From IMG/VR virus record IMGVR_UViG_3300020420_000671: a DNA stretch of 64,000 nucleotides. One strand, given 5' to 3'. The position numbers and the translations under genes were made by a program. The first letter of the stretch is position 1; every line of letters begins with the position of its first letter. Source of the DNA: a virus (lineage: Duplodnaviria > Caudoviricetes). This document shows positions 19,203 through 63,618 of this stretch, piece after piece. Under the pieces are notes generated by a model, which saw nothing but the letters and a program-made list of their open reading frames with translations, searched no databases and was not told the DNA's origin.

Positions 19203-22200
19203 ATGGCTAGACAAGATATTTATTTAGGGGTTGAAGGTAACGACGGTACTGGTGATAGTATTCGTGAAGCATTTAAAAAAGCTAACGAAAACTTTACTGA
19301 ACTTTATGCTGTATTTGGACAAGGCGGAACAATCAGCTTTACAGCATTAAGTGATACACCCACAGCTATTACACCAAACGGACTTCTAATAGGTAACACG
19401 ACCGGAACAGAATTAATACAAAAAACATTAACAGGTGGTACAGGTATATCAATTGATAATACAAGTGCTACAAACATTACAATAACAAACACTGGTGCTA
19501 ATATTAATGCTGACACTAGTCCTATACTAGGTGGACCATTAAGTGGTAATGCTGTTTATCCTATAGGAAAAATTAACACATCTACTGCCGCTGTAGCAGA
19601 ATTTAATCAAACTCATGCTTCACAAATTACAATAGATGACCTTGTAACAGATAAAAAATATCAAGATAAAAATTACGCACCTCATACAGTCACACAAACT
19701 AATAAATCTGTGTATGCTAGATCTGAACCGACTAATGATGCGGAATACACACAAACAATTACAGAATATAGATCAGGTAACGTTGTAATATCCAACCATG
19801 GATTTGATAACAGCTTCAATGGTACACAATGGAAATATTCGACTACAAATACAGCACCAAATGGATTGACAAACAACACTGATTATTTTGTTAGATTTGT
19901 TTCTTCAGATCAACTCAGTCTACACACAACTAAAACTGAGGCACAAAATGATGACGATCTTACAAGAGTAAAAGTCAACATAGGTTTAGGATCAACAACT
20001 GCCGTAACAGGTACAGATGTAATTAAAGATCAAAGTTATAATGAAAGTTTATATGGTAATTACAGAATTGACGAAGTCATGCCGAGAAATGCTTCAGTTA
20101 GAAGACAGGGAGATGAATTAGCAGGACCTTTATATCTTTCAGACCATCCTGGTTATCTACAAGGCACTACAGGCCCTATAGAAGATAGACAAGCGGCTTC
20201 AAAACTTTATGTTGATAATTCTTCTTATGCGAGTACTGAAGATCTTTTTGTAACAAAACAAGGTGATGATACCCAAGCTAATACTCCAGTTGGTTTTGAA
20301 GGAAGAGGATTAAGCTATGCTTTTGGAAGTTTAAAAGCGGCGGCTTTAAAAGCACAAGAGATAATGGAGTCAGCACCAATAGAACCTGGTGCTTATAGAC
20401 AAACTATTACGTTCAATGCCGGCGACGGAATTTCATTAGTTACAAAATCTGAAACTAAAACACCTAACTCTGCGGCATCGAGTGCTATAAAATATTTACA
20501 AGGAAGTAAAAAGTTTGTACAAAAATCTGTAGTAGATTATGTAAAAGATAATTTTCCTACACACAGTTTCTTTGATACAAATGTTATTAATACAAACACA
20601 GAAAGTTTGTTATTTAAAAATAAAAAATTTATACAAGAAGAAGTTACAGCCTGGATTAATTATCAAATCAACACAGGAGCAACTGTAAGCTATAGTGATG
20701 GTACTGCTGACTTTACAGGATTCAAATACAGTTCAGCAAAATGTAAAAGAGATGTAGGATACATTGTTGACGCTTGGGAAAATGATTTAGCCAGAGGCGG
20801 AAACATTGAAACACGTAGAATAGCTTCAAGTTATCTAGCTGGTGCTGTGAATGCTGTAAACAAAAATACAAGTAACGCAGGTAATACTGTCAACCAAATA
20901 GCCCAAACAAATGCCGCAATCGAATTTGCTAGAGATTTAGTTAAGGATTATATTTTAACAGGAACAGCTTATCCTACAAAACAGGGATACTTCCAAGTTA
21001 ATGCTTCTAACTTAACTGGTACTGGTTTTAGATTTTATATTGGTACATCATCATACGCCAATGCTTATGTAAATGGTGGACTAGTTACCAAATCAGATGG
21101 AACACAACTTAACGTAAGCACATTCACATATGATTATACAACAGGATTTGCCGATGTAGTTACAACTACGACACATGGATTATCAGCAGGTAATACAGTA
21201 CAGCTAACTGGTATAAATGTTTCCTGTACATATGAAGGTTCAACACAGCAAAAAGTATATCCAGAACTTGTAAGTCAAGCAAACTGTTATAAATTTACAG
21301 TACAGAACACGGGTTACTTAGGAACAGCTCCTACATCAAATCAATTACAAATTTACGTAGGTCCAAGTAAGTACGGACACACTTATGTAAGTGGTGGTAC
21401 CATAAAAGGAACTTTAACAGAATTTTCTCCAACAGGAGCAACTTACAATCCTGCGACAGGAGATATGGTAATTACCATAGGTAACCATACCCTCACTACT
21501 TCTAACACAATTGAAATAGAACCAAACAGTTTTACGTTTACATGTGCCAAAGATAACAATGCTACATTACATTCTTATCCTAGAAAAGAATCTGTAACAT
21601 CATCGCCAAGCAGTGATCCAGCATACAATACAGCTTTAGCTATTACGGCAGTAGGCAGTACAACAATAACAGTTAATGTAGGTATATCTTCTGATACAAG
21701 TGTACACACTTTCGTAGGAGCAAGAACAAATGCTGTCAAGTATTACTCAGAAAGTAACACAATTACTGGTTTCAATTATAGTAACACAACAGGTTATGCT
21801 ACAATAACAACTTCAAATACACATAGTTTAGTAGCAGGAAACAAAGTCGAATTAGCTGACATTTATCTATCTTGTACAGCACCAACAGCAAGTAATACAT
21901 ATTACCCACAACCAATTTACGCAGATTACGGAACTGGTAACAAAGATATTCCTGGTAGAGCAAATACTCTTACAGAACTTATTGTAGATGTGATTGCTAA
22001 TGGATTAGGAAAAGTGCCTGCTCCAGTACAACCAGAAAAAGCTAACAACACTTGTGAAAGAGATTTGGGACTTATAATCGATGGTATGATAATCGATATT
22101 AGAAACGGAACAAATTCAAACTTCAACGCATTACAAGCGGCCAAGAGATATTTCAGTACACCTAGTGGAGCAAAAGCAAGAATAAGTCAAAAGACAGAAA

Positions 22201-25200
22201 CACTTGCGGCTATAACAAAAGCAAAATCCTATGTTAGAAGCGTTGTTTCTAATACAGATTTAAAAAGACAATCAAGATTATTCACAGTTGAAAGTGCTAA
22301 TTTATCAGGCACACAATTCCAAGTTGCCGTAGGTACTTCTAATACAGTTCATACTTACATCAGAGGTGGTACTGTTACTTTTGGAAATCAACAGTTTGCT
22401 ATAAACAATTTTGCTTATGATAATGTTACAGGAAAAGGTTTAATAACTACTACAACCACACACGGATTAACCACAGGTAATGTTGTTCAATTAGACGGTA
22501 TTGTATTTGAATGTAATACCGGTATCAAGGAGTATCCAGGAGAATTTTCAACAGACATTCCACAATACTTAGATAGCACTCTTTCAACAGTATCTGATAC
22601 AATTAAAAACGCATTAGATAATCAGTTTGATATTATTTTAGATATTTTAACAAACGGCTTTACAGCAGTAGATACTTATACAGTGGTTGAAGGTAGTACA
22701 TACAAGATTCAATTTAGTAATGGTGGATCAAACTACTACACTGACCAAGGTATAAACAGTAACGTAGATATTCTTCCAGGAAAAATTATTGTAGGTAAAA
22801 CTACCGGAGCAAGAGGTAGAATTGTAAAATATACAAGTGGTGTAGATTTAGGTAACGTTGCTTACGACGAAGTTGAAGTTGTATTAGTTGAGCCAAAAGA
22901 ATTTAGAATTGGTGAAGAACTAGAATATGGTAACGGAACAAAAGAGAAACAAATTTGTATCCATGTTGAATCAGGAATATACTACGAAGATTATCCTATT
23001 AAAGTTCCTGACAACGTATCAATTAAGGGAACAGACTTTAGACGTTGTCAAATCAGACCGGCACCGAGAATTTCTCAATCACCTTGGGCTAAAACTTATT
23101 TTTATAGAGATAAACTTTTAGACAATCTACAAATTACAGACTTTACCGGAGCAGACATTGCTACGGCACAAGATATTACAATTACAGGTACTAATGAAGC
23201 AGGCGGAGTTATTACTGTTACTCCAGCAGACAATATCGCTCCTATTGCTTGGGACGGTGCTTGGTTCTATACAGACAACGGCGCAGTTGGATTAATTTCA
23301 AACGCTGATGGTGGAAGTGACTTCAATGTTACTTTGACTGTAGATATTTTACCAAACTTGTCTAATATAAGTTCAGGTGCTTGGCATGTTAAGAAAACTG
23401 TCAATTACGGATATCACTATCTAACTGATCCAGGTGACGCAACTAGTGTGGCCAAACGTAACGACCAAATGGATGTATTCTTAATGAATGATGCTACAAG
23501 GTTAGCAAACATGTCATTCCAAGGACACGGTGGTTTTGCTCAGGTACTTGATCCAGCAGGACAAGTTCTTATTAAATCTCCATACACACAGGTTTGTGGA
23601 TCATTCTCAGGAAGTGTTAACAAACAAGCATTTAGAGGTGGTATGTTTATTGACGGTTTCTCAGGAAACTTAGAAACTGTTATCACAAGCAAAGATGACA
23701 ATTATACATTGAATGTTCAATCAGCTGTCGGAACAGGTTTGAGAATAAGAAAACCACAAACACCTGCTCCGTTCTTTATTAACGGTGTACGTTATCAGGT
23801 TGATGCTATATCAGAATATGATGGTGGAGCAGGAACAGGTAAACTTTTAATCAACAAACTTTCAAACGAAGGAAACGGCTACACTGATGCTATTCCAGGA
23901 AGTGGTACAGCTATATTCATTCAGACTGCTGGTAATAGGTCAATGTTGGCAAATGACTATACTCAGGTTAACGACTTAGGTTACGGATTATTTGTTAACA
24001 ACGCAGGTCTTTCAGAACAAGTTTCAACATTCACATACTACAACCACATAGCGTTCTTTAGTAACAACGGTTCAGAGATTAGAGCTCTTAACTGTTCTAA
24101 CGCAAATGGTAACTTTGGTTTAGTTGCGGCAGGATCAGATCCAAATGAAACTGTTGATGCTATTACTTCATTAAGAACTATGCAACAGCCTGCTAAGGTT
24201 TACAATGATGCTAGTAACACATACGGCTTCGGTGCTATTTCACATGCGGCTGGTGTTAACACAATCCATTTATATGATTGTGATTACCATCCATATCCTA
24301 ACAGTTTAATTGATGTTTACACTAGGGATGGAAGCGGAAACATCACAGCATTGAACACATATGAAGTCACAGCGGTATCGGCACTATCTGTTCCTACTTC
24401 TAACTCAGGAGGATACACGGGTGCTACAGGTCCTACAGGACGTAAAGGTGCTAACCAAACAATTTACAGATGTAACATATCAGGTGATACTGGATTAGCA
24501 AGTGCCATTACAGGTGACCATAATGTAAACTTGGCATCAGATGCTTCTCCTTACGTGATAATGAGAATGAATAAAAACCACTTGTTCTCAGGAGTATCAG
24601 GTGTTACAAGTATTAGACCATCAACAGCTTTGATATTTGATGAAAACTTAGATCAAGTTTATAGAACAATTAGCTTCAACAATCAAGACTCTGATAACAG
24701 TGCACTTGCGGCTGATAGGTTCCAAATAGTTTTTGATTCAGGATTTAAACATCTAAACCTTACAGTAAATCAAACAGAAGCTGTGAATAACACATACGCT
24801 GGTGCTGGTACAACAATGGGAGCAACGGTAGGTGACGTTGTAATTGCTATTGAAAAACTAACAGCGGCAGGTATTGCTAGAATCAATAATAACGATATGA
24901 TATTTGCTTGGGGAGGTAAACTTCACCAAGTATCAAACTACACGGATAGAACAACATTCGCTACAATTAATTTGTCCGATGTTGCGGCTTCTAATATTAA
25001 TAGTAATAACGGATTGTACACTGGTTCTGGTATAGCTAAAAAGGTTTATAGTGCTGGCGGAACTACAGCGATTACATTGACACTATCATTAGCGTCAAAT
25101 GAAGCGGCTAACATAACAGTTGGTATTTCAACATTAAGAGCAAACGGACATGACTTTGATAAAATTGGTACTGGTGGATTTAATACTACTAACTATCCTA

Positions 25201-27089
25201 GCATTATTTACGGTGAACCAGTTAACTCAGCTACACAGGCAAATGAAGTAAACGAAAGAGGAAAAGGTAGAGTATTCTTTGCTTCTACAGACCAAGACGG
25301 ATTCTTTAGAGTTGGTAAGTTCTTCAGTGTTGACCAAGGAACAGGTACAGTTACTTTTGCGGCATCGATTGCTATTAGTAACTTAGATGGACTAGGCTTT
25401 AAGCAAGGTGTTAGAATTACAGAATTTAGTAACGATGATACAATGGCAGATGCTGATCCAGCCGCGGTACCTACAGAATTTGCCGCTGAAGCATTCTTGA
25501 CAAGAAGATTACATTTCGATAGAACAGGAGCTTTACAAACAGTTGGTACAATAGGTCCTGGTGCGTTAGCAAGAGACGGTACAACACCTTTAACAGGAAA
25601 TTTAAATGCTGGTGGAACTAATAAAATATTTAACATGGCGGACCCAACCAATCAACAGGATGGGGCAACTAAATCATATGTAGATGCTAGAACTCCATTT
25701 GGCTCAGAAGCTATAGGAGTTAACATTGCCAACAGACAAACAAATGACTTCTTGGCATATACTGGTTCTAGTTACGACAACGTTACTCCAGCAGGTGACA
25801 TTGGCATTAGTGTCACAGGAAATATCGCTACATTTTCAATTACAGCAGATTCTATTGTAAACGCTGATGTAAACACAAACGCCGGTATAGCTCAAAGCAA
25901 GTTGGCAATGAATGCGGCAACTACAAGAGCTAATTCTACAGGCATTGCTCAAAGTGATTTAGGACTAGCAAGTTTTGACTCAGGTGACTTTACTGTAACA
26001 AATGGTTTTGTAACTTTAAAAGAAGGTAGTGTTGATTACGCAGACTTACCTGATATGGCGGCAAAAACTGTACTAGCAAATATAACCGCAGGCACAGCAG
26101 ACACAGTTGCAGTTACTATTGATGATTTAATTGACAACTATAGTAAATTCACAACTACTGGTGTTGCTTCTAGAATTGTACAAACTGGTACAGATGGTAG
26201 TATAGACGCACAGAAATTTAAACTTGATAACTATGATATCTTAGACCAAACTAACTTAACAATGACTCTTAAAACACCTGGTGGTGCTAAGGTATTTGAT
26301 ACTGTCGGATCAGTAGCAAGTAACACAACTACAACATTCCCAGGTACTATACAGATAGGTGACACAGATACTGCGGCATCTTTCTTCCAAAAGAATAGTA
26401 GCTATGGAGATCCAAGTGATGCTACACTTAACGAACCAAGATTAGCAAGTGATTGGGTATACACTTCATTTATAGAAGCTCCAGGAGAAAAGGGAGCATC
26501 TTCAACAGGTATAGCTGTAGGAGCAGGTACAGGATTTACAGCCGCAGGTGAAATAGCAGTCATAGCAAACAACAATGTGGCGGCTATTAAATTTACACAA
26601 ACAGCGGCAAGCCCTTCAAGTAATAATGGATATGCTTTAGGAACATCTGCTTTAAGATATTCTACAGTTTATGCTACAGCATTAGATGGTTTGGCAACTT
26701 CAGCAAAATACGCTGACTTGGCAGAAAACTATCTAGCAGATAATGATTACGAAGTAGGAACCGTGCTTATATTTGGTGGTGAACAAGAACTTACTACAAC
26801 AAATATTAAGGGAGATACCAAGGTAGCAGGTGTTGTTTCAGAAAATCCAGCACACTTAATGAACAGCCAATTAGAAGGTGACCATGTTACGCCATTGGCA
26901 CTACAAGGTAGAACTCCTTGTAAAGTAATTGGCACAGTCAAAAAAGGTGACATGATTGTTACAAGTGCGGTAGCAGGATACGGTATGGTAAACAACGTAC
27001 CAGGTATAGGAACAATAATTGGTAAAGCAGTGGGCACAAAAGATGATGACGGACATGGCATTGTTGAAGTTGTGATAGGGAGAGTATAA
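19203..27089 (+). CDS. Giant (2628 aa) tail fibre/baseplate structural protein
   Basis: N-terminal gp9/gp10-like NDGTGDSIREAFKKANENFTELY, internal beta repeats, C-terminal YADLAE...VAGVVS.NPA...ALQGR.PCKV intramolecular chaperone-like domain. Confidence 0.85.
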   Translation: MARQDIYLGVEGNDGTGDSIREAFKKANENFTELYAVFGQGGTISFTALSDTPTAITPNGLLIGNTTGTELIQKTLTGGTGISIDNTSATNITITNTGANINADTSPILGGPLSGNAVYPIGKINTSTAAVAEFNQTHASQITIDDLVTDKKYQDKNYAPHTVTQTNKSVYARSEPTNDAEYTQTITEYRSGNVVISNHGFDNSFNGTQWKYSTTNTAPNGLTNNTDYFVRFVSSDQLSLHTTKTEAQNDDDLTRVKVNIGLGSTTAVTGTDVIKDQSYNESLYGNYRIDEVMPRNASVRRQGDELAGPLYLSDHPGYLQGTTGPIEDRQAASKLYVDNSSYASTEDLFVTKQGDDTQANTPVGFEGRGLSYAFGSLKAAALKAQEIMESAPIEPGAYRQTITFNAGDGISLVTKSETKTPNSAASSAIKYLQGSKKFVQKSVVDYVKDNFPTHSFFDTNVINTNTESLLFKNKKFIQEEVTAWINYQINTGATVSYSDGTADFTGFKYSSAKCKRDVGYIVDAWENDLARGGNIETRRIASSYLAGAVNAVNKNTSNAGNTVNQIAQTNAAIEFARDLVKDYILTGTAYPTKQGYFQVNASNLTGTGFRFYIGTSSYANAYVNGGLVTKSDGTQLNVSTFTYDYTTGFADVVTTTTHGLSAGNTVQLTGINVSCTYEGSTQQKVYPELVSQANCYKFTVQNTGYLGTAPTSNQLQIYVGPSKYGHTYVSGGTIKGTLTEFSPTGATYNPATGDMVITIGNHTLTTSNTIEIEPNSFTFTCAKDNNATLHSYPRKESVTSSPSSDPAYNTALAITAVGSTTITVNVGISSDTSVHTFVGARTNAVKYYSESNTITGFNYSNTTGYATITTSNTHSLVAGNKVELADIYLSCTAPTASNTYYPQPIYADYGTGNKDIPGRANTLTELIVDVIANGLGKVPAPVQPEKANNTCERDLGLIIDGMIIDIRNGTNSNFNALQAAKRYFSTPSGAKARISQKTETLAAITKAKSYVRSVVSNTDLKRQSRLFTVESANLSGTQFQVAVGTSNTVHTYIRGGTVTFGNQQFAINNFAYDNVTGKGLITTTTTHGLTTGNVVQLDGIVFECNTGIKEYPGEFSTDIPQYLDSTLSTVSDTIKNALDNQFDIILDILTNGFTAVDTYTVVEGSTYKIQFSNGGSNYYTDQGINSNVDILPGKIIVGKTTGARGRIVKYTSGVDLGNVAYDEVEVVLVEPKEFRIGEELEYGNGTKEKQICIHVESGIYYEDYPIKVPDNVSIKGTDFRRCQIRPAPRISQSPWAKTYFYRDKLLDNLQITDFTGADIATAQDITITGTNEAGGVITVTPADNIAPIAWDGAWFYTDNGAVGLISNADGGSDFNVTLTVDILPNLSNISSGAWHVKKTVNYGYHYLTDPGDATSVAKRNDQMDVFLMNDATRLANMSFQGHGGFAQVLDPAGQVLIKSPYTQVCGSFSGSVNKQAFRGGMFIDGFSGNLETVITSKDDNYTLNVQSAVGTGLRIRKPQTPAPFFINGVRYQVDAISEYDGGAGTGKLLINKLSNEGNGYTDAIPGSGTAIFIQTAGNRSMLANDYTQVNDLGYGLFVNNAGLSEQVSTFTYYNHIAFFSNNGSEIRALNCSNANGNFGLVAAGSDPNETVDAITSLRTMQQPAKVYNDASNTYGFGAISHAAGVNTIHLYDCDYHPYPNSLIDVYTRDGSGNITALNTYEVTAVSALSVPTSNSGGYTGATGPTGRKGANQTIYRCNISGDTGLASAITGDHNVNLASDASPYVIMRMNKNHLFSGVSGVTSIRPSTALIFDENLDQVYRTISFNNQDSDNSALAADRFQIVFDSGFKHLNLTVNQTEAVNNTYAGAGTTMGATVGDVVIAIEKLTAAGIARINNNDMIFAWGGKLHQVSNYTDRTTFATINLSDVAASNINSNNGLYTGSGIAKKVYSAGGTTAITLTLSLASNEAANITVGISTLRANGHDFDKIGTGGFNTTNYPSIIYGEPVNSATQANEVNERGKGRVFFASTDQDGFFRVGKFFSVDQGTGTVTFAASIAISNLDGLGFKQGVRITEFSNDDTMADADPAAVPTEFAAEAFLTRRLHFDRTGALQTVGTIGPGALARDGTTPLTGNLNAGGTNKIFNMADPTNQQDGATKSYVDARTPFGSEAIGVNIANRQTNDFLAYTGSSYDNVTPAGDIGISVTGNIATFSITADSIVNADVNTNAGIAQSKLAMNAATTRANSTGIAQSDLGLASFDSGDFTVTNGFVTLKEGSVDYADLPDMAAKTVLANITAGTADTVAVTIDDLIDNYSKFTTTGVASRIVQTGTDGSIDAQKFKLDNYDILDQTNLTMTLKTPGGAKVFDTVGSVASNTTTTFPGTIQIGDTDTAASFFQKNSSYGDPSDATLNEPRLASDWVYTSFIEAPGEKGASSTGIAVGAGTGFTAAGEIAVIANNNVAAIKFTQTAASPSSNNGYALGTSALRYSTVYATALDGLATSAKYADLAENYLADNDYEVGTVLIFGGEQELTTTNIKGDTKVAGVVSENPAHLMNSQLEGDHVTPLALQGRTPCKVIGTVKKGDMIVTSAVAGYGMVNNVPGIGTIIGKAVGTKDDDGHGIVEVVIGRV
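20990..22540 (+). repeat. Four degenerate repeats of about 90-100 aa inside the giant fibre
   Basis: GTS...Y..GG.V...F.Y...TG...T...HGL..GN.VQL.GI...C...YP recurs at about 20990, 21290, 21630 and 22280. Confidence 0.75.
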
Positions 27090-27370
27090 TGGCTATTCTA
27101 ACTATAAACATAGGAACAAGTGCTAACAAGGGCGATGGCGATCCGTTAAGAGTTGCGTTCGATAAAATTAACAAAAACTTTGCTGAACTTGATCTTACTA
27201 ATACTAAAAGAGATGTTGTTGGTTCAGTGTTCGCAGATGATTCTACTTTATTAGTAGATGCTGTTAATGGAGTGATACCAGGTTATGTAAGTTTACAAAC
27301 TTTAAAAACTGTGGCGGCGGCAAGCACAGACTTTGCTGATTTTAAAACAAGAATAGCGAACCTGACATAG
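27089..27370 (+). CDS. Short structural protein with gp9/gp10-like N-terminal anchor
   Basis: INIGTSANKGDGDPLRVAFDKINKNFAEL. Confidence 0.8.
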   Translation: MAILTINIGTSANKGDGDPLRVAFDKINKNFAELDLTNTKRDVVGSVFADDSTLLVDAVNGVIPGYVSLQTLKTVAAASTDFADFKTRIANLT

Positions 27371-31057: not shown

Positions 31058-31756
31058 ATGGCAATACAAACAGTAAACATAGGAACAATAGCAAACGACG
31101 GTACAGGTGATGACCTACGTGAAGCGTTTGTAAAAGTAAACAACAACTTCGCAGAACTAGATGCTAGAGATCCTGAAAAAACCACAGGTGCTAATCTTGG
31201 CACATCGGGTGAAGGAGTATTTGCTCAAGTAAGTGCCGCAGAGATGCAGTTTAAAAAATTAGTAGCTGGCACGGCCGTAAGTTTAGCAAGTGACAACAAC
31301 ACTATTACAATTAATTCTACAGCAACTGGCTTACCGCAATTACAGGTGTTTGCTGATAATACTAATGCTACTTTTGACGCTAACAATACAGCATTAACAC
31401 TAGCAGGTGGAAATTTAGTTACAACAAATTTAGTTGGAAGCACAATAACTATTACTTCAGAAACTTCGTTGTTTACAGACACAACTCCTAAACTTGCCGC
31501 AAACTTAGATGGACAACAAAAAGAAATCATTAATACAAGTGATATTAAAAGTACAATATATGGCGTCGATATTAGAAATATAAAAGATGTTGCTCCATAT
31601 TTAACTTTTGATCAAGGTCTTGCTTTTCCAACATCTTTCAGTAGTTCATTAGACTACCTAGTTGACGCCTTAAGCGTTGACTTTGACAACGGAACATCTA
31701 CATTTACAGCATCAGCATTACCTACCGCAGATATGGGTACACTTCCTACAGCATAA
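31058..31756 (+). CDS. Structural protein with gp9/gp10-like N-terminal anchor
   Basis: VNIGTIANDGTGDDLREAFVKVNNNFAEL; late TAAATA at 31037. Confidence 0.82.
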   Translation: MAIQTVNIGTIANDGTGDDLREAFVKVNNNFAELDARDPEKTTGANLGTSGEGVFAQVSAAEMQFKKLVAGTAVSLASDNNTITINSTATGLPQLQVFADNTNATFDANNTALTLAGGNLVTTNLVGSTITITSETSLFTDTTPKLAANLDGQQKEIINTSDIKSTIYGVDIRNIKDVAPYLTFDQGLAFPTSFSSSLDYLVDALSVDFDNGTSTFTASALPTADMGTLPTA

Positions 31757-48575: not shown

Positions 48576-48604
48576 TTGACATTTGACAAAGAAAGTAATA
48601 TAAT
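48576..48604 (+). promoter_or_regulatory. Perfect sigma70 promoter, 6 nt before the ATG
   Basis: TTGACA-N17-TATAAT-ttaact-ATG 48611. Confidence 0.88.
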
Positions 48605-50558: not shown

Positions 50559-50587
50559 TTGACAAATATGTGTGAAATATGTATAAT
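50559..50587 (+). promoter_or_regulatory. Perfect sigma70 promoter overlapping a late TAAATA, upstream of clpA
   Basis: TTGACA-N17-TATAAT-AAATA. Confidence 0.85.
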
Positions 50588-55229: not shown

Positions 55230-55577
55230 ATTTTTTTCTCTATCTAAAAACTTATATTCAACTTTTTCTGGTTCAAACTGCTGTAAGGCATCAAATACTT
55301 TTTGTATATCTAAAGGACCGCATGTATAAACATCTAATTGTATTAACCCAGGTTTACATTCATCCCAAACATGTATAGCAACATGACTGGTTTCTATAAC
55401 AGTCACACAGGTAATACCTCTATTGCCTTCCATATCGCAATACTTTGCGTAGGGACCTAGCATGATTCTCATGCCTATTGACTCTATTAAACTTTTTGCC
55501 CAACCCACTATTTGATGTTCGTTATTAGGTGGATTCTTTACTTCTGACCTAACAATCAGATGCTTGTGCTGTAACAT
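55215..55577 (-). CDS. speD: S-adenosylmethionine decarboxylase proenzyme
   Basis: KHLI, GNRGITCVTVIETSHVAIHVWDE, IQLDVYTC. Confidence 0.88.
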   Translation of the reverse strand: MLQHKHLIVRSEVKNPPNNEHQIVGWAKSLIESIGMRIMLGPYAKYCDMEGNRGITCVTVIETSHVAIHVWDECKPGLIQLDVYTCGPLDIQKVFDALQQFEPEKVEYKFLDREKNLSSL

Positions 55578-55620
55578 AAGCGTATCCTTTTTAGGTTCTA
55601 CTTATCTCGAACTAACTTTT

Positions 55621-55644
55621 GTATTTACATATATTGATAAATAC
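55621..55644. promoter_or_regulatory. Back-to-back late promoters (inverted repeat)
   Basis: GTATTTA-N10-TAAATAC between speD and the head-cargo cluster. Confidence 0.6.
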
Positions 55645-55672
55645 TTTATAATAACGTATACAAGGTGTTATC

Positions 55673-56542
55673 ATGACAAAAACATTTAAAGATTATCTAA
55701 AAGAAAGCGGTTTACAGTACTATACTGGTGTTAAAAAACACGGTGAAGAGTACATGAAAAAAGCGGCTAAAGCAGGTCGTGAAGGAGCTAGCCAAGAAGA
55801 ACTAGGACGCCTAAAGGACAAATACAGTAAAGCAGAAAAGAATAAAAAAACTACTGAAGCTGATATGCAACGTGGCATGGGTGCTTTAGATAAATTTAGA
55901 GAATTATATAGAAAAGGTATTGGCACAAATGATGACGAAGTTGTTTTGAAAGAGTTGATTGACGTAATTAATGATGATACTTTACAAGATGATTTTCCAC
56001 AACTTAAATCTTTTACAAGTGCATCACCGTTTGACGACTCAGAGATAGTCCAAGCAAAAGATGTACCTGGAAATAGTGCTGATGAAAAAATTATGTCACT
56101 CATAAAAGCAATTGATGATGATTCATGGGTAGATGGTTTCGCTCAAATGTTGACGAAAGATTTCAACATGAGTGATAATGAAGAACTTGATAGAGTTCAG
56201 GAACTTGCTGGTGTACAAACAAATGAAGAAACATATGATGGAGATGATTTCTATAATAACTATGGTGACATGTGGTACAACGAAGATGAGATCATGGACG
56301 AAGCAGAATATCAAGGACGTAAAGTAAAGCTAGGCAAACCAATGCGTGGCGATGTAAAAAAGTTCAAAGTATACGTTAAAGATCCAAAAACTAAAAATGT
56401 TAAAAAAGTAAACTTTGGTGATCCTAACATGAAAATTAAAAAATCTAATCCGGCACGTAGAAGAAGTTTCCGTGCTAGACACAACTGTGATAATCCAGGA
56501 CCAAGAACAAAAGCTAGATATTGGTCATGTAGGAAATGGTAA
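55673..56542 (+). CDS. Modular internal-head-like protein with C-terminal DUF6321-like basic module
   Basis: MTKTFKDYLKE leader; C-terminal KKVNFG...RRRSFRARHNCD.PG...KARYWSC. Confidence 0.75.
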   Translation: MTKTFKDYLKESGLQYYTGVKKHGEEYMKKAAKAGREGASQEELGRLKDKYSKAEKNKKTTEADMQRGMGALDKFRELYRKGIGTNDDEVVLKELIDVINDDTLQDDFPQLKSFTSASPFDDSEIVQAKDVPGNSADEKIMSLIKAIDDDSWVDGFAQMLTKDFNMSDNEELDRVQELAGVQTNEETYDGDDFYNNYGDMWYNEDEIMDEAEYQGRKVKLGKPMRGDVKKFKVYVKDPKTKNVKKVNFGDPNMKIKKSNPARRRSFRARHNCDNPGPRTKARYWSCRKW

Positions 56543-56896
56543 ATGAAAATATTTGAAATTTTTAATAAAGAAATAGAAGATAAAATGCCCTACGATGTAG
56601 TAGATGACGTTCATTTTCATTTGCTTAATGACGATATGTTTTATAGAAAATATTATCTTCCGTGTATGGAAAAAATAAGAGCAGAGAAAAATGAAAAAGT
56701 GATTCAAGGTCATATGGATCCTATGATCCATAAAGGAATCAATCATTATGTTATAAAATATGACATAGATAAAACACCCACTGATTTAATGACTCCAGAG
56801 GAAGTAAAATCATTAAAGGACAGGGTTTTGGATCACGAACGAAATCCTGATAAGGAGTTACAAAGTGCACCTGAGACAGATATTCGAAGACCGTAA
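56543..56896 (+). CDS. Hypothetical protein with CTS-like leader
   Basis: MKIFEIFNKE. Confidence 0.72.
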   Translation: MKIFEIFNKEIEDKMPYDVVDDVHFHLLNDDMFYRKYYLPCMEKIRAEKNEKVIQGHMDPMIHKGINHYVIKYDIDKTPTDLMTPEEVKSLKDRVLDHERNPDKELQSAPETDIRRP

Positions 56897-57749
56897 AACG
56901 GCTGTCTTTGCTTTAGGTAGACTGAATCCAGCTACCATTGGCCATGAAAGACTAGTTAACAAAATCAAAGAACAAAAAGGTGATCCTTTCCTTTTCTTAA
57001 CTGACCGACCATCAAAATTACCTGACGATCCTTTAGCACCGCAAGAAAAATTAGAGTGGGCACAAAAAAGTTTTGACGGAATACAAATTAGATTAGCAAA
57101 AACAATAGCTACAGCGGCAAATCAATTATATAGACAAGGTTACAATGAAATTACATTCTTAGAAGGTGAAGATAAATTATTTAATATACTTAAAAATTAC
57201 AACGGAAAGTTTGATGGCAAAAAAGGTCCTATTGAATTTCCCTTTAAGTTCGATAAATTAAATTACGTTAGGCTAGAAAGAAATGCTGACGATCCTGGTG
57301 CTTCAGGAATGAGTGCTACAAAGCTAAGACAATTTGCTCAAAATAATGATCTAGAAAAATTTACTTCAGGACTAGCTCAAAAGGCACAACCAAATGCGGA
57401 AAAAATGATGCGTCAGTTACAAGGAGCATTAGGTGTTGATCCTGTTGAAGAAGATTTACAAGAGCTAGAAGTAAAACAGCAAAAACCAAAGATAGATGTA
57501 TTGAATAACATTGCCGCAAGGACAGATGGAAGACCTTTTCCTTTGAGTTGGAACGCAGGTAAAGATGAAATATCAGTTGGAGGTAAAATGTTTGTATCTC
57601 CAAAGACAGCAAATAAATTTTTACGTTTCTTCGATAATCAAGAAAAGGAAAATCAAGAACTTATGAAAAAAGCACTAGGAAGTGCTAAAACAGCCGCTCA
57701 GCTTTTTAAAAATTTAGGCTTTGAATTTAAACTTGATATGGAGAGATAA
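56865..57749 (+). CDS. HIGH-family nucleotidyltransferase (phage cytidyltransferase-like) with CTS-like leader
   Basis: MHLRQIFE; FALGRLNPATIGH..L, PL..QEK, GMSATKLR. Confidence 0.8.
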   Translation: MHLRQIFEDRKTAVFALGRLNPATIGHERLVNKIKEQKGDPFLFLTDRPSKLPDDPLAPQEKLEWAQKSFDGIQIRLAKTIATAANQLYRQGYNEITFLEGEDKLFNILKNYNGKFDGKKGPIEFPFKFDKLNYVRLERNADDPGASGMSATKLRQFAQNNDLEKFTSGLAQKAQPNAEKMMRQLQGALGVDPVEEDLQELEVKQQKPKIDVLNNIAARTDGRPFPLSWNAGKDEISVGGKMFVSPKTANKFLRFFDNQEKENQELMKKALGSAKTAAQLFKNLGFEFKLDMER

Positions 57750-57961
57750 TGGATATTAAAACTCTTCAAAAACTTGCTGGCATAAATGAATTTCAAGGTT
57801 ACAGACCTGTTAGCATAGAAAATATGAGTCATACTGCTAGTGCTTTGAAGGCAAAGGAAAAGCGTTTAGGAGTAAAACCAGGCGATCGCGATTGGTTCAA
57901 GTTGTGGTTTAACTTACCTTACCTTACTGGTCCTGCTCAATTTAGGAGTAGAAAGAAATGA
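57749..57961 (+). CDS. Small protein with CTS-like leader
   Basis: MDIKTLQKLAGINE. Confidence 0.7.
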   Translation: MDIKTLQKLAGINEFQGYRPVSIENMSHTASALKAKEKRLGVKPGDRDWFKLWFNLPYLTGPAQFRSRKK

Positions 57962-58506
57962 AAATAAGACAAATTTTTGAAGCAGTTGAAGGTAAACTAG
58001 AACTAACAAAATTGCCTTATAAAACAGGAGATCTTTCTCCAGTTCTTTCTAAGGACAATGTAGAATATCATTATAATGTGCTATCCAAAGGATATGTAAA
58101 TAGATATAATAATCAAGAAGGTGATCCAAAATTTAATTATGGTGGTGCTATGTTACACAATTTATTTTGGTCACAACTAAAGAAACCAGCAGGGTCAAAT
58201 TTACCTACAGGAGCAATTAAAAATTTAATTGAAGAAAACCATGAAGACTATTCTACGTTTAAAAATAGCGTGGTAGTTTTAGCAATGGGTATACAAGGTA
58301 GTGGTTGGGTCTATCTATCAAAAAACGGAGATCTTAAAACAACTCCTAATCAAAGTTATAAAACAGATATACTAATGCCTATAGATATGTGGGAACATAG
58401 TTTTACTGATTATATTCCGGCAAAAGATGCTAAGAAAAAGTATTTACAAAACATATTTAAGATAGTAAACTGGGACGTAATAAACAATAGGATAGACGGA
58501 AAATGA
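57958..58506 (+). CDS. sod: Fe/Mn superoxide dismutase with CTS-like leader
   Basis: MKIRQIFE; LPY..DL.P.LS...VEYHY, HNLFW, GSGWVYL, IDMWEH; all four metal ligands present. Confidence 0.9.
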   Translation: MKIRQIFEAVEGKLELTKLPYKTGDLSPVLSKDNVEYHYNVLSKGYVNRYNNQEGDPKFNYGGAMLHNLFWSQLKKPAGSNLPTGAIKNLIEENHEDYSTFKNSVVVLAMGIQGSGWVYLSKNGDLKTTPNQSYKTDILMPIDMWEHSFTDYIPAKDAKKKYLQNIFKIVNWDVINNRIDGK

Positions 58507-61500
58507 AATTTGGTGATTTCAAAGTAAAAGAAGAAGCCGCTGGCGTTGGCATAATTACAAAACAAAACGCAACCAAAGATGTTCCTGTTGGCGGTGAATA
58601 TATGAATGTGAAAAAACTTGGTTTGGGCAAAGGTAAGCCAAAAAAACATCCTAAAAAAGTACGAGGATCAAAGACCAATGTATTATTCAATTTAGGAATG
58701 GCCGAGAAGGAAGACAAAGGCGAAGACATGAAAGGTTTTGATCCTGAAACAGTACAAGCCCTAGCTAGACTTAGATCCAAATATCCACATGCCAAAGATC
58801 CGTTAGACGCACTTCTAAAATCAGTTCTTGCTACAGATAGAGATAACGATGCTGTTGACGATACGCAAGATGATAAGATCAGTAAAAACAAAACAACGGT
58901 TAGTAAACTTGAACCTGAGATTATAAGATTAAAAAGCAGATTGAGAGATGTAGAACTTCAGTTGAAAAATAAAGTGAAGGTAGGAGAGGCAGAACAATTA
59001 GACGAATTTATCCCCGCAGTGGCCGCAAGAATTGCTACTAGTGTTTTACCTAACATCGCAAAAAATTCTTCGCACCTAGGAGCCACAGGAGCTGGTACAG
59101 CAATAGGTGATAAGTTATTCAAACAGATTAAAAAAACTAGAAATGCCAATAAAGGTGTAGGACTAAAGGGTAGAAATCTAAGAGCTAAACAACTTTCACA
59201 AACCAATGAAGTTACAGCAAAGGATTTAAGTAGCGACAGCGAAGTTTACGTCGATATGGATGGCGTTCTAGCTGATTTCTTTGGTGCTTGGAAAAAACTT
59301 GTAGGTAAAGATTGGCGACAAATAAAAGATTTAGATGGAGCGTTACAGAAGATTAGGGATAAGGAAGATTTTTGGTTAAACATTCCTATTACTTCAAATG
59401 CTATGAATCTTTTAAATTTGATAAAAGAACTTAAAGGCAAATATAATATATTAAGTGCTCCTCTTCCAAACGATCCTAATGCTGAACCCCACAAACGTGA
59501 ATGGATCAAAAAGAATCTATCAGCCTTTCCACCGAGCAAGGTTATAATTACATCTAATAAAGCAGTACACGCTACCCAACCAGACGGAACACCAAACATC
59601 CTAATAGATGACTTTGGGAAAAATATTGAAAAATGGGAAGCGGCAGGCGGTGTTGGATTCAAACACAAGGATCACAAGTTTGAAAGAACTGTTAAAAATC
59701 TTAAACAAAATATGAAAGAAGATCTAGAAGAGCAACAGTTAGATGAATTTTTTCAATATTTTAAAATGTTAAAATATGGTTGGAAAACAGGCATGTGGCT
59801 GTGGAACAACAAATGGGCTATTGCGTTTATAGGCATTTCTTACAAGGCTTTTAAATGGGTTGCTGATGCTATAGCATGGCTTAAACCCTTCCTTGACAAT
59901 CCAGTAGTAAAAGCATTAGGAAGATATGGATTACCTGCTATAGGAGTTGCTATTGCGTTATATGGTGGAAAAAAACTATACGACCAAATAACAAAAGCAG
60001 AGAACGAAAAAGACTTGGAAAAAATATTAGCAAACTTTGAAGCAGATCAAGAAGAACTTGCTATGCTTAAAAAAGAATTAGAAATTATATCGAAAAAAAG
60101 CAAAACTACTGAAGCAAAAATGAGCAAAGATTCCATTAAAAGCATACACAAAACAGCTGACAAAATTAAAGATAAACCAAAAGCCAAAAAGTCAATAGGC
60201 AATTGGGCAAAAGAAAGAGGAATGGATCCTGAAGGAGCAATTTACGCAATAGCTACAAATATGAAAAAGCGTAAGCAAGGAAAAAAAATTACAGGATTAG
60301 GCAAGGAGTCTTACACAAGAGATGAACTTCCACAAATAAGTCAAAAACATTTAGTGAAGATTCCGCACACGATGGAAACTGTTTATGTCAAAGACATAGT
60401 CCCAGTACAAAAAGAAAGATTAAAAGAAAATCATAAAAAACAACTTTACAAAATACTAGATGGAAGATTTAATCCTATTGTGGTAGACTGTTACGATAGA
60501 ATAGTCAACGGTCATCACAGATATGACATCCTTAAAATGCTTCAGATGGAAAGCATTACAGTTGCTAAACTTCCTTTTACATTAGAATTTTTATTAGAAA
60601 TAACTAGAAGAGATTTCTTAAAAGGGCTTGGCGCCACAGCGGCAATGTCCATGGTACCGAAGGCCGCAAAAGCGTTGGCCAACAACAAGGAACAATGGTA
60701 TGTTATAGATGAAAAAGGCAGATTACAAGGACCTATGGATAGTAATAAAGCAAAAACTGTATCCATTGCTTATCCAAAAAAATTACCGGCTATAGAACCT
60801 GCTCCTGAAGGTTTTGAAATAATAATTGCCCAAGGATCAAGTACTAAATTGAATATGGCTTTTACAAAAGCCGAGTTTGCTATAAAGAAAATATATGCTA
60901 GAAGATTTCCTGGAAAGACTGTGAATGTAAATCGCAAAATAATTAAATTACAGGGTAGAGCAATAGAGGCGGCAGGTTCATCTTATGTAGCTACTCAGAG
61001 TGCTTATGTTAAGAAAACTACAGAAGAAAGCGTTGAAGAAGGAAATTTATTATCAAATCCACAGAACTCTATTTTGGTTAGAAAAAAAGATGGTTATGAC
61101 CATTATAAACTTGCCACGCACATAGCAAACATAAAAGGAATGTCACCAAAGGTTGCCGCTAGGAATAAGCAAGACATATTCATTCAATTTTATGGTGGTG
61201 AAAAAGAAAAACAATACATGATGAAAAATCTTAAACGTATAGGATATGATGTACAACCTGCTGATGGATATAAAGATACACATTTCGACGAAAACATAGA
61301 CGGATCATACATATTAAGAGTGAGAGAAAATTTTGCTGATGGTAAGAAAAAAGGTAAAAGTAGACCAGGACGTGTTAAACGTTCAGGAGCAAGTTGTAAA
61401 GGATCAGTTACAAGTTTAAGAGCAAAAGCAAAGAAAGCATCAGGTGAACGTGCTAAGATGTATCATTGGTGTGCTAATATGAAGGGTGGTAAAAAGAAAA

Positions 61501-62423
61501 CTGAAGCATATACCCAAGATGAATTTTTTAAAATTTTAGTAGAAAGTACTCCACAACAGCTCGAAGAAGGTATAGCAGATACACTTAAAAAACTTCCTAA
61601 GAATTTATTATCAAAAGTGACACCTATAATTAAAAAGATCCCAAAGACAGCAAAAAATTTAACCTTAATGGCAGTATTGCTTGGTACAATGGTAAATGCT
61701 GTTGCGGCAGGAGATATGGCCAAAGTCAATACACCACTTGATAAACTTAATAATATGACAACTATGAGCACTACAATGGACACAGGTACTGATGCTGACG
61801 TTGGGCCAGGGCATACAATGCCTGACAAAATAAAGGTATTAAAAATGCCAACACCTCCACCAGCACCGGGTGCAGATACTCCAGATGGAACAAAAAATGA
61901 TGGTACAAACACACAGACAACAAAAGATGGTAATCGTACTGTGTCAAGTGGAGCAGGTACATATACATTTTCACCAGATGGGAAATTATTAAAGTATGAA
62001 ACTCCTAAAATAAAAGGATATCAACAAATACATGATCTAGTTAAAAAAACAGTCACAGTTGATGCTAATACATCTGTTACAATGGACAAAGATTTTGGTA
62101 ACTTATCCAAAGCAGATAAAGAATTATTGAAAAAGAATGATCCTAATTTTGATAAAAGTACATCAGTAATAGATCAAAAAGCAACTTATGACATGAGCGG
62201 TAACCTTATAAGCAAAGATCATACTGGTATAAAGTCCGGAGCAGTATCGATTGGTATTGGTGGAGATGGAAATAAGAGTTTTAAATTTGACGCAGGAGGA
62301 GGAAAGGTATATAAAGCAAGTAGTGCCGATATGCCAGCGGCTAAGAAAACTTTAAGCAAAATGCAGACGGATTTGAACAAAGCAAAAGATCAGAGTGCGC
62401 CATTTGCAAACAAATCGACCTAG
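58503..62423 (+). CDS. 1306-aa modular polyprotein (HAD 5'-nucleotidase, ParB/Srx-like, membrane and signal-peptide modules)
   Basis: MKFGDFKVKE leader; YVDMDGVLADF...LIDD (NT5C-like); PIVVD...IVNGHHRY; TRRDFLK; repeated (L/V/T)xE junctions. Confidence 0.8.
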   Translation: MKFGDFKVKEEAAGVGIITKQNATKDVPVGGEYMNVKKLGLGKGKPKKHPKKVRGSKTNVLFNLGMAEKEDKGEDMKGFDPETVQALARLRSKYPHAKDPLDALLKSVLATDRDNDAVDDTQDDKISKNKTTVSKLEPEIIRLKSRLRDVELQLKNKVKVGEAEQLDEFIPAVAARIATSVLPNIAKNSSHLGATGAGTAIGDKLFKQIKKTRNANKGVGLKGRNLRAKQLSQTNEVTAKDLSSDSEVYVDMDGVLADFFGAWKKLVGKDWRQIKDLDGALQKIRDKEDFWLNIPITSNAMNLLNLIKELKGKYNILSAPLPNDPNAEPHKREWIKKNLSAFPPSKVIITSNKAVHATQPDGTPNILIDDFGKNIEKWEAAGGVGFKHKDHKFERTVKNLKQNMKEDLEEQQLDEFFQYFKMLKYGWKTGMWLWNNKWAIAFIGISYKAFKWVADAIAWLKPFLDNPVVKALGRYGLPAIGVAIALYGGKKLYDQITKAENEKDLEKILANFEADQEELAMLKKELEIISKKSKTTEAKMSKDSIKSIHKTADKIKDKPKAKKSIGNWAKERGMDPEGAIYAIATNMKKRKQGKKITGLGKESYTRDELPQISQKHLVKIPHTMETVYVKDIVPVQKERLKENHKKQLYKILDGRFNPIVVDCYDRIVNGHHRYDILKMLQMESITVAKLPFTLEFLLEITRRDFLKGLGATAAMSMVPKAAKALANNKEQWYVIDEKGRLQGPMDSNKAKTVSIAYPKKLPAIEPAPEGFEIIIAQGSSTKLNMAFTKAEFAIKKIYARRFPGKTVNVNRKIIKLQGRAIEAAGSSYVATQSAYVKKTTEESVEEGNLLSNPQNSILVRKKDGYDHYKLATHIANIKGMSPKVAARNKQDIFIQFYGGEKEKQYMMKNLKRIGYDVQPADGYKDTHFDENIDGSYILRVRENFADGKKKGKSRPGRVKRSGASCKGSVTSLRAKAKKASGERAKMYHWCANMKGGKKKTEAYTQDEFFKILVESTPQQLEEGIADTLKKLPKNLLSKVTPIIKKIPKTAKNLTLMAVLLGTMVNAVAAGDMAKVNTPLDKLNNMTTMSTTMDTGTDADVGPGHTMPDKIKVLKMPTPPPAPGADTPDGTKNDGTNTQTTKDGNRTVSSGAGTYTFSPDGKLLKYETPKIKGYQQIHDLVKKTVTVDANTSVTMDKDFGNLSKADKELLKKNDPNFDKSTSVIDQKATYDMSGNLISKDHTGIKSGAVSIGIGGDGNKSFKFDAGGGKVYKASSADMPAAKKTLSKMQTDLNKAKDQSAPFANKST

Positions 62424-62682: not shown

Positions 62683-63618
62683 ATGAGAGAAAAGGACCTT
62701 AAAGAAGATTTAGCAACGCTGGCTTACAAAGCCGAAGCAGACCATGAAGTACAGATGGCTAGATCAGATCTATATAAAATAGCCAAATACTCTATCAAGC
62801 TACACGAAATGATGAAGGGTGTAACTGAGCAAGAGGGTATTGAAGGTTGGGTTCAATCTAAAATTACAAAAGCCGCAGATTACATAGGTTCAGTATACCA
62901 TTATCTAGACTATGAAATGAAGTTTGATGAAATGACTGAAGCTAAAAAAGCAAAACCAGATTACATTGATATTGACGGCGATGGCGATAAAAAAGAGCCA
63001 ATGAAAAAAGCAGTCAAGGATAAAGCTAAGAAGAAAAAAGTTAAAGAAGGTATGATGGACGACGAAGTAAAATCCATACTTATGAAGCATCCAAAAGAAT
63101 TCGCAAAACTGAGAGCATCAGAAGATTTGATGGACGTTTATGGCACTCCGTTATATCAAGAATTGTTTGAATATTTTTCAGATTCAGGTGAAATGCCATA
63201 TGGTACTCAAAAGGGCAGAGACGGTGATCCTGTCCAGTGGATGAACGATGAGCTAGATGACATGGGTGTATTTGACCAACCAGAAAAAATGAATGTATCA
63301 GCCGCAGACAAAAGATTAAACACACCTGCTTTCAAAAAAATGCAAGCCGGAGATAAACGTTATAGTGATAAAACTGAAGAAACATACGAAAGTTATCTAC
63401 AGGAAAAACTTAACAAAACAAGAAAGTATAAAACACTACTGGAATCTGTTGGAAAACCAATTTCAGAAGAAGAATTTGACACCCTTGCTGAGAAACAAGA
63501 TGCTTGTTATCACAAGGTAAAGTCCAGATACAAAGTTTGGCCTAGCGCCTATGCCTCTGGTGCTCTAGTTCAGTGCCGTAAAAAGGGTGCTAAGAACTGG
63601 GGTAACAAGAGCAAGTGA
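62683..63618 (+). CDS. Modular internal-head-like protein
   Basis: MREKDLKE; modules GWVQSKITKAADY, PDYIDIDGDGD, MPYG..K.RDGDP, KQDACYHKVKSRYKVWPSAYASG; TAAATA at 62661. Confidence 0.78.
   Translation: MREKDLKEDLATLAYKAEADHEVQMARSDLYKIAKYSIKLHEMMKGVTEQEGIEGWVQSKITKAADYIGSVYHYLDYEMKFDEMTEAKKAKPDYIDIDGDGDKKEPMKKAVKDKAKKKKVKEGMMDDEVKSILMKHPKEFAKLRASEDLMDVYGTPLYQELFEYFSDSGEMPYGTQKGRDGDPVQWMNDELDDMGVFDQPEKMNVSAADKRLNTPAFKKMQAGDKRYSDKTEETYESYLQEKLNKTRKYKTLLESVGKPISEEEFDTLAEKQDACYHKVKSRYKVWPSAYASGALVQCRKKGAKNWGNKSK

Follow-up and report, generated by a model that had tools for sequence, protein, structure and literature searches.

We identified, in a 64,000-nt stretch of uncultured viral DNA (IMG/VR record IMGVR_UViG_3300020420_000671; Duplodnaviria, Caudoviricetes; hereafter the window, with positions counted from its first letter), an open reading frame (ORF) in which a marine T4-related jumbo phage combines about 12 unrelated protein modules in one precursor. 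The ORF is open from 58503 to 62423 on the + strand and encodes 1306 amino acids (aa), as a preliminary description of the window had stated, and its product is the longest member seen of a large uncultured marine family. We favour, at a probability of roughly 0.65, the reading that this polyprotein is a capsid-addressed precursor, which would be cut by the prohead protease at (V/I/L/M)-x-E joints and would extend the internal (ejection) proteins of T4-type phages to many modules. Computation directly yielded the module architecture, the grammar of the joints and the likeness of the leader to that of T4, and it showed that related records with members of the family encode gp21 and gp23. The preliminary description had likewise proposed that a gp21-type prohead protease cleaves the precursor after Glu, to yield about ten products, and every comparative test that was run fits this proposal. 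Its further suggestion, that one packaged chain would fix stoichiometry and keep toxic modules latent until head maturation, is speculative.

Comparison of module order among homologues that keep one module and change its neighbour revealed extensive shuffling, with breakpoints at E10, E68, E168, E236, E415, E537, E602, E699, E846, E942 and E1001, and at every well-sampled joint Glu is the last residue before the next module. All twelve Glu sites put forward in the preliminary description exist where it placed them (with codons after Glu beginning at 59007, 59211, 59748, 60114, 60309, 60600, 61041, 61329, 61506 and 61569), and eleven of them prove to be module joints; the twelfth, LEE/1022 (a slash here marks the position after Glu), lacks shuffling support and lies inside a confident helix, and E1022 is a doubtful site. 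The same description had spoken of short acidic linkers ending in Glu, of which the Glu stands, but not all of the linkers are acidic, Glu often being the sole acidic residue (KTE, GKE, TTE). Contigs of co-occurring relatives (runs X3, X4 and X7) lose their match to the window at 58527-58530, 60588, 61043 and 61498-61517, and as these loose ends fall at or no more than a few bases from the end of the leader, E699, E846 and E1001, they indicate that modules are swapped in natural populations.

We counted joint residues as distinct upstream hexamers before anchor motifs. For the basic Cys/His module that defines the family, Glu occupies P1, the last residue before the module, in 166/166 contexts drawn from 148 representatives at 50% identity, and in 101/101 contexts of a first data set. 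Glu was similarly found at P1 before the GNLIPNPQ module (aa 847 in the polyprotein; 21/21), the ParB module (12/12), the AKMSK module (16/19) and the twin-arginine translocation (Tat) module (5/5), and in 74 of 75 contexts at the end of the N-terminal module, NLG[LM]xE, which is followed by many different modules. In the representative set Asp was never found at P1 (0/166), though Asp codons outnumber Glu codons in these genes, and both Glu codons are used; P3 is L, I, V, M or F in 134/166 contexts (81%; background 22%), and P2 and P4 show no constraint. The Glu joints are thus far beyond chance. These anchor counts replaced residue statistics at the ends of BLAST high-scoring segment pairs (HSPs), which in their naive form were noisy, with Glu at just ~14%, and blurred by Lys-rich spurious HSPs; a Glu-blind test of HSP-end peaks, itself crude and noisy, placed 8/12 sites near a peak (p about 0.02).

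The presence of the Glu depends on what follows it. In most members the basic module stands at the stop codon and ends ...KKK(stop), and where a further module comes after, and solely there, it acquires a trailing Glu, as ...KK[ST]E. Short spacers often hold a second site, as in MAE/SIDE/V, LLE/VTSE/G and MAE/SERLDE/L. In T4, gp21 cuts after Glu in L/I-X-E, with few other determinants (PMC9026906), and the joint grammar deduced here matches that rule.

Structural models are consistent with several of the joints. In an AlphaFold2 model of aa 603-1306 (mean predicted local distance difference test score, pLDDT, 54), the ParB domain, helices at 1005-1086 and a beta domain at ~1112-1242 (block pLDDT 51-85 for the last two) are moderately confident, and the sites 699, 846, 942 and 1001 lie in low-confidence segments that separate folded parts; site 1022 lies within a helix (pLDDT about 80). 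The agreement of predicted domain boundaries with Glu sites therefore holds for four of these sites and fails for the fifth. The envelope of the NT5C match (245-401) falls wholly between E236 and E415, and that of the ParB match also falls wholly between sites.

The N-terminus of the polyprotein resembles the leader of T4 internal proteins. Its first ten residues have hydrophobic F3, F6 and V8 and end at E10, in line with a capsid-targeting leader, which spans ~10 residues, is hydrophobic near positions 4 and 7 and has its (L/I)-x-E site at 8-10. In translations of the T4 record, IPII and IPIII begin MKTYQEFIAE/A and IPI begins MKTFKEF...ITE/A; these ten residues form the T4 capsid-targeting sequence, in which targeting depends on positions 4 and 7 and processing on positions 8 and 10, and an Asp in the tenth position prevents processing (PMC9026906). 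Across the family, 98/113 distinct N-termini start M[KR] and 82/113 have [LIVMF]xE within residues 5-14, and some leaders (MRAREFVIE, MRFYEFVTE, MKIVEITE) are nearer to the T4 form than that of the polyprotein itself. We additionally identified similar leaders on window neighbours, in the genes at 48611, 54159, 56543, 57958, 62445 and 62683. The gene at 57958 encodes a Fe/Mn superoxide dismutase (SOD; Sod_Fe_C E 2.7e-17, Sod_Fe_N E 3.5e-11), and its stop overlaps the start of the polyprotein gene (ATGA). SOD is a recurrent predicted cargo, with a Cu/Zn SOD embedded as a module in other family members.

Peptidase_S77 (gp21, PF03420) and gp23 (PF07068) are both encoded in each of three long related virus records with members of the family, which measure 191, 340 and 221 kb and have an estimated completeness of 100%, 91% and 63%; two further records with no gp21 or gp23 match are estimated to be 41% and 35% complete. 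The 191-kb genome (G001) has the gene order portal, small core protein, gp21, acidic scaffold and gp23. Its scaffold begins ...QAIAE/A, and its capsid protein reads ...QVVAE/ANTT where T4 gp23, which is cut after Glu65, has ...FLTE/AEIGG.

An argument for cutting that is indirect, but independent of the joint statistics, comes from an export signal in the middle of the chain. Residues 699-718, directly at the joint LLE/699, match Pfam TAT_signal (PF10518; 23.8 bits, cut-off 22.7), and ITRRDFLKGLGATAAMSMVPKAAKA contains the Tat consensus (S/T-R-R-x-F-L-K), a hydrophobic region and AxA. Tat signals act at free N-termini; this one starts at residue 700 of 1306 and would become terminal only after a cut at E699, and it is therefore sensible only if the chain is cut there. 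In homologues the Tat module occurs in the contexts FLLE/ITRR and QVLEE/MDRR(QFM...), always three residues after L-x-E, with differing passengers (e.g. in P0006).

Under the favoured reading, the 10-residue leader would bind the scaffolding core, so that the whole chain would be built into the prohead. A gp21-type protease would remove the leader and sever the chain after each of the eleven breakpoint Glu residues, freeing ~11 products in the head: the NT5C nucleotidase, the ParB/sulfiredoxin (Srx)-fold protein, the basic Cys/His protein, a hydrophobic module and orphans. These products would leave the head with the DNA at infection. The cut after E699 would bring the Tat signal to a free N-terminus, and that product, and perhaps the Sec-like terminal module, could be exported by the new host. 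A broader and distinctly tentative proposal, which we lean against while taking it seriously, is that marine T4-related phages share a plug-and-play grammar, in which a leader and a basic end module enclose as many cargo modules as needed, with (V/I/L)-x-E between them. Entire enzyme sets would thereby enter the head in a single chain, cutting by the head protease would unmask Tat and Sec-like signals, and injected proteins would be re-exported by host translocases to the periplasm or envelope. To our knowledge, such a capsid-to-cytoplasm-to-periplasm route is undescribed for virion cargo.

The closest known counterparts are the T4 internal proteins IPI, IPII and IPIII, and Alt. They share with the polyprotein family a short leader M-K/R-x-x-x-F/I-x-x-E ending in (L/I/V)-x-E, a basic product of small size, the pairing of a conserved leader with highly variable cargo, location among non-structural genes, and a gp21-type protease (in our case, in the related records). 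They differ in being single-module proteins encoded by separate genes, from which the leader alone is removed (Alt also losing a C-terminal piece), whereas the polyprotein carries up to ~12 modules, including enzymes and proteins with export signals, in one ORF with a site at every joint. T4 gp22 is annotated in the T4 record as a head scaffolding protein degraded by gp21. L/I-x-E sites at which cutting takes place are numerous in T4 gp22, gp67 and gp68, but these proteins are destroyed to peptides so that the head can empty, in contrast to the folded functional modules of the polyprotein. In phiKZ, 201phi2-1 and SPN3US, which are also jumbo phages, head-internal inner-body or ejection proteins are likewise cut after Glu (by gp175/gp245 proteases); the phiKZ motif is three residues, S/A-x-E, often with several sites per protein (PMC9026906). 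The hydrophobic P3 of our family is T4-like and unlike that motif, and phiKZ-type cleavages mainly remove propeptides from single proteins, with no chain of unrelated enzymes described there. Both the family and the repetition of a site at every joint of a multi-enzyme chain appear to be undescribed: we found no account of the family, or of a polyprotein of such kind in T4-like phages, in the open literature.

Several observations weigh against the reading of a packaged and processed precursor. Packaging and cleavage are both deduced from comparison. P3 is non-hydrophobic at E236 (T), E537 (T), E602 (G) and E1001 (K), and P1' is often Asn. In formal terms, each module could begin with the Glu. 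The interior of a capsid would be an unusual place for hydrophobic modules and for modules with export signals. The gp21-type protease is known from the records of relatives, and the records G002 and G003, considered as stand-ins for the window's genome, proved distant and patchy (64-81% identity over short pieces). A tblastn search of the cultured-phage collection with the basic module found no match, leaving this module with no T4 counterpart and the family with no cultured carrier in that collection. The AlphaFold2 model of aa 1-620 (22-row alignment; mean pLDDT 37.6) was unusable for domain boundaries and uninformative for the N-terminal half of the protein.

The timing of expression supplies a further counter-point, as the nearest promoter-like site is of sigma-70 type, 2.9 kb upstream of the polyprotein gene, and no exact T4 late promoter (TATAAATA) was found near that gene. 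This point is softened because an ATAAATA overlaps the sigma-70-like promoter, and T4 ipIII and ipII are arranged similarly, with sigma-70-like sites of their own and late promoters further upstream, before gene e. The distribution of ATAAATA suggests the core of a late promoter of T4 type: the window has 16 copies on the + strand (e.g. at 12537, 18852, 31753, 34734, 35484, 46780, 53530, 55637 and 62660) and 5 on the other, and 14/16 of the + strand copies lie 5-45 nt upstream of gene starts, a number reached by 0/20000 random sets. Timing therefore does not decide the question. RNA runs contained no more than small shares of the polyprotein gene. We also noted that some ATAAATA copies lie 6 nt from an ATG, leaving no room for a ribosome-binding site.

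The alternative that survives best, although we consider it unlikely, is an uncleaved multidomain protein, losing at most its leader, whose domains act tethered and whose Glu joints are flexible linkers and recombination hooks. It would correspond to the polyvalent proteins of phages and conjugative elements (Iyer, Burroughs, Anand, de Souza and Aravind 2017; PMC5512222), which have 2-15 domains, are widespread in phages and are in some cases delivered unprocessed. Like the polyprotein, these proteins join many unrelated effector domains in one polypeptide, are predicted to travel with DNA and can contain ParB-like domains (PMC5512222), and the several unrelated domains found here (NT5C, ParB/Srx fold, Tat passenger, basic module and orphans) are what such a protein would have. 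The word ENFADGK recurs at joints with no basic module after it (P0090, P0110 and P0083), which fits recombination in a shared DNA word, and the indirect nature of the evidence for cleavage also favours this alternative. A plain linker, on the other hand, would tolerate Asp and leave P3 free, contrary to the composition of the joints; the trailing Glu is gained solely where a module follows; an internal Tat signal would be of no use to a chain left uncut; and one codon is too short to act as a recombination hook. The authors of the polyvalent-protein study draw an analogy to viral polyproteins, but they ascribe release to embedded peptidase domains, and report no T4-like Alt-family ADP-ribosyltransferase in a genuine polyvalent protein (PMC5512222). 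We found no peptidase family match and no HExxH in the polyprotein; the reading favoured here implies instead a trans-acting prohead protease and a capsid-targeting leader, and the joints obey a strict, short motif.

HExxH motifs do occur elsewhere, at ~aa 130-150 of the homologue P0070 (HELIH) and in a neighbour gene of the 191-kb relative (L066 5574-6815; HEMIH), and they resemble the metallopeptidase domains of polyvalent proteins; HExxH peptidase modules are thus found in some family members as they are in polyvalent proteins (PMC5512222).

We regard as quite improbable a second alternative, in which another protease, be it an embedded or separate metallopeptidase or a host enzyme, cuts the polyprotein after Glu in the producing cell's cytoplasm, as a device of early gene expression with unpackaged products. 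The Tat, Sec-like and hydrophobic modules would then go to the envelope of the infected cell, for instance for superinfection exclusion, and it is in the producing cell that such modules would be most sensible; the sigma-70-like promoter at the head of the gene run, the HELIH module of P0070 and the stand-alone HEMIH protein encoded nearby in G001 also fit this view. The leader, however, matches the T4 capsid-targeting sequence, not an export or protease tag, the 65-aa members of the family, made of a leader and the basic module, resemble internal proteins, and the polyprotein itself has no peptidase motif. The (L/I/V)-x-E grammar follows the rule of gp21, the one Glu-specific protease known from T4-type phages (PMC9026906).

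Finally, that the long ORF is an artefact, either a chimeric assembly or genes fused through sequencing error, is suggested by its metagenomic source and by a module count and size that are extreme for the family, but is very improbable given contigs from four other runs (three studies) that tile the gene at 100% identity with no indels, a relative 84% identical over residues 1-993 on an IMG/VR contig, and dozens of homologues of 700-1224 aa with extended collinear parts in common. As the foreign contigs bridge every joint, the ORF is real and not an assembly chimera. The gene is near-identical in marine, seawater and ballast-water metagenomes from several studies.

We investigated the distribution of the family to which the polyprotein belongs. 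A word-indexed search found 243 relatives, of which the best 120 are 718-1224 aa long, and share pieces of the polyprotein in varying order and combination; further domains in relatives include a CCA-adding enzyme, Cu/Zn SOD, GNAT and ParB_N. A profile of the basic module (alignment A1) matched the representatives of 2111 clusters formed at 50% identity, with E <= 1e-10 in 1647 cases, and in most of the listed representatives the module is at or near the C-terminus. Pfam cargo in 148 representatives includes NT5C, GNAT, Sod_Cu, ParB_N, pterin dehydratase, sigma-70 region 4, nucleotidyltransferases, NUDIX, SLT, LysM, GH19, dCMP deaminase, methyltransferases and the CCA-adding enzyme, whereas the majority of modules in these representatives have no Pfam match. 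The recognisable cargo is, to judge by its sequence, of a host-takeover or ejection-protein type. The minimal members of 65 aa have a leader of 8-9 residues joined directly to the basic module (e.g. MRAREFVIE/NFADGK...), and are small like the T4 internal proteins. The architecture of the family is a T4-like leader, swappable cargo modules and a basic Cys/His end module, the last of which probably binds DNA. In the cultured-phage collection, megablast of the region found no match, and tblastn of the whole polyprotein found stand-alone NT5C genes only.

A second conserved Cys-containing basic C-terminal motif (...Y[KD]VWPSAYASG..V.C...) was found in the window at 62683-63618 and 55673-56542, at L066 8477-8926 and in L028. 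Other leader-bearing neighbours end with this motif, which is seen again in related virus records and may serve as an end module in place of NFADGK...HWCANMK.

The modules of the polyprotein and the features around its gene are given in Table 1. The expectation in the preliminary description that unrelated domains are joined in this chain is borne out by the NT5C match (248-382), the ParB/Srx fold (603-699), the Tat signal and several orphan modules. The acidic module at aa 69-168 is missing from P0005 (MAE/SERLDE/LLPAV) and placed elsewhere in P0066, P0087 and P0094; it is helical, according to a poor, low-confidence model. The NT5C match to PF06941 scores 25.5 bits (cut-off 24.8), the HAD motif DxDG is present as VDMDGVLADF, and phrog_2643 is matched with E 8e-23 over 245-401. 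The domain occurs as a stand-alone gene in phage Melnitz, and NT5C modules within the family have the tails PVEE/, MSE/ or IAE/. The following module (416-537) is present in P0003 and P0021 and missing from P0002 and P0006; its sequence suggests that it may insert into a membrane, but none of its 19-residue windows attains a Kyte-Doolittle value of 1.5.

Table 1. Modules of the polyprotein and features upstream of its gene, in window coordinates.
Position	Strand	Residues	Feature	Basis or remark
55560-55583			terminator-like hairpin	upstream of gene run 55673-62423
55624..55652	+		sigma-70-like promoter TTTACA-17-TATAAT, 11/12	ahead of tightly packed gene run 55673-62423
55637-55643	+		T4-late-like ATAAATA	overlaps the sigma-70-like promoter
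57958..58506	+		Fe/Mn superoxide dismutase gene, leader MKIRQIFE before the usual SOD start	Pfam
58503..58532	+	1-10	leader MKFGDFKVKE, ends V-K-E; boundary at 58533	T4 capsid-targeting-like
58533..58706	+	11-68	conserved first module, basic (EAAGVGIITKQN...NVLFNLGMAE)	in most long family members
58707..59006	+	69-168	acidic module, ends QLDE	homologue comparison
59007..59210	+	169-236	hydrophobic and basic module, ends TNE	kept in homologues with changed neighbours
59211..59747	+	237-415	NT5C-type 5'(3')-deoxyribonucleotidase module, DMDGV motif	PF06941, phrog_2643
59748..60113	+	416-537	Trp/Ala/Gly-rich hydrophobic stretches and helical tail, ends TTE	low-confidence model
60114..60308	+	538-602	small basic module (AKMSKDSIKS...), ends GKE	helical, moderate confidence
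60309..60599	+	603-699	ParB N-domain / sulfiredoxin-fold module (NGHHRYD), ends LLE	Foldseek, phrog_620
60600..61040	+	700-846	Tat signal ITRRDFLKGLGATAAMSMVPKAAKA and ~120-aa passenger, ends VEE	Pfam TAT_signal
61041..61328	+	847-942	orphan alpha/beta module (GNLLSNPQNS...), ends VRE	Glu-preceded in homologues
61329..61505	+	943-1001	basic Cys/His module, family-defining (NFADGKKKGKSRPGRVKR...MYHWCANMK), then KTE	alignment A1
61506..62423	+	1002-1306 and stop	terminal part: helical stretch, Sec-like signal/anchor (NLTLMAVLLGTMVNAVAAGD), low-complexity linker, beta-rich domain

Residues ~541-590, within the small basic module, are helical at block pLDDT 58-77 in an otherwise poor N-terminal model. 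The ParB/Srx module (block pLDDT 61-82) was assigned by Foldseek at probability 1.0 to ParB, Noc and Srx chains, but with E only 2e-3 and above, and it matches phrog_620 and has a GxxR-type motif, NGHHRYD; Pfam ParB_N remained below its cut-off in the polyprotein. A Foldseek search of the PDB with the 603-1306 model recognised the ParB/Srx part alone, and an ESM Atlas feature search with aa 700-846 and 1002-1306 found no usable match.

The terminal part has one strongly hydrophobic segment, which ends AVAAGD and has a hydropathy peak starting at 1052-1055. Inside it, near aa 1101 (window ~61800), lies a real module boundary without Glu: the homologue P0014 has the Sec-like anchor in common and a different domain after ~aa 1101, consistent with a passenger that is swappable behind a shared export segment.

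All genes of the window are on the + strand. One encodes a clamp loader that shares 55% identity with its counterparts in PA5oct-type Pseudomonas jumbo phages, and others encode an endolysin, a ClpA/B-like ATPase and proteins of the baseplate or fibres. The leader-bearing gene at 48611 and the gene of the ClpA/B-like ATPase at 50614 are each immediately preceded by a perfect 12/12 sigma-70 promoter (TTGACA-17-TATAAT), at 48576-48604 and 50559-50587, respectively. We additionally identified an N-terminal motif (...NIGT.AN.G.GD.LR.AF.K.N.NF.EL) common to the 2628-aa ORF at 19203-27089 and the ORFs at 27089-27370 and 31058-31756; the copy in the ORF at 31058 matches baseplate and tail-fibre connector families at their N-termini.

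If the reading of a packaged precursor cut by the prohead protease is true, the T4 internal-protein system would be no coliphage curiosity: thousands of marine phage protein clusters would use it as a general grammar for loading cargo. Nucleotidases, superoxide dismutases, tRNA CCA-adding enzymes, acetyltransferases, cell-wall enzymes and orphans would be delivered at infection, and phages would have a counterpart of the polyprotein strategy of RNA viruses, with cutting in trans by the head-maturation protease. The joints would then provide a simple sequence rule to predict which effectors uncultured phages deliver with the virion, and T4-based delivery vectors could draw on them for natural design rules in multi-cargo packaging. 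Exposure of the Tat signal by a cut, moreover, raises the testable question of whether injected phage proteins reach the periplasm.

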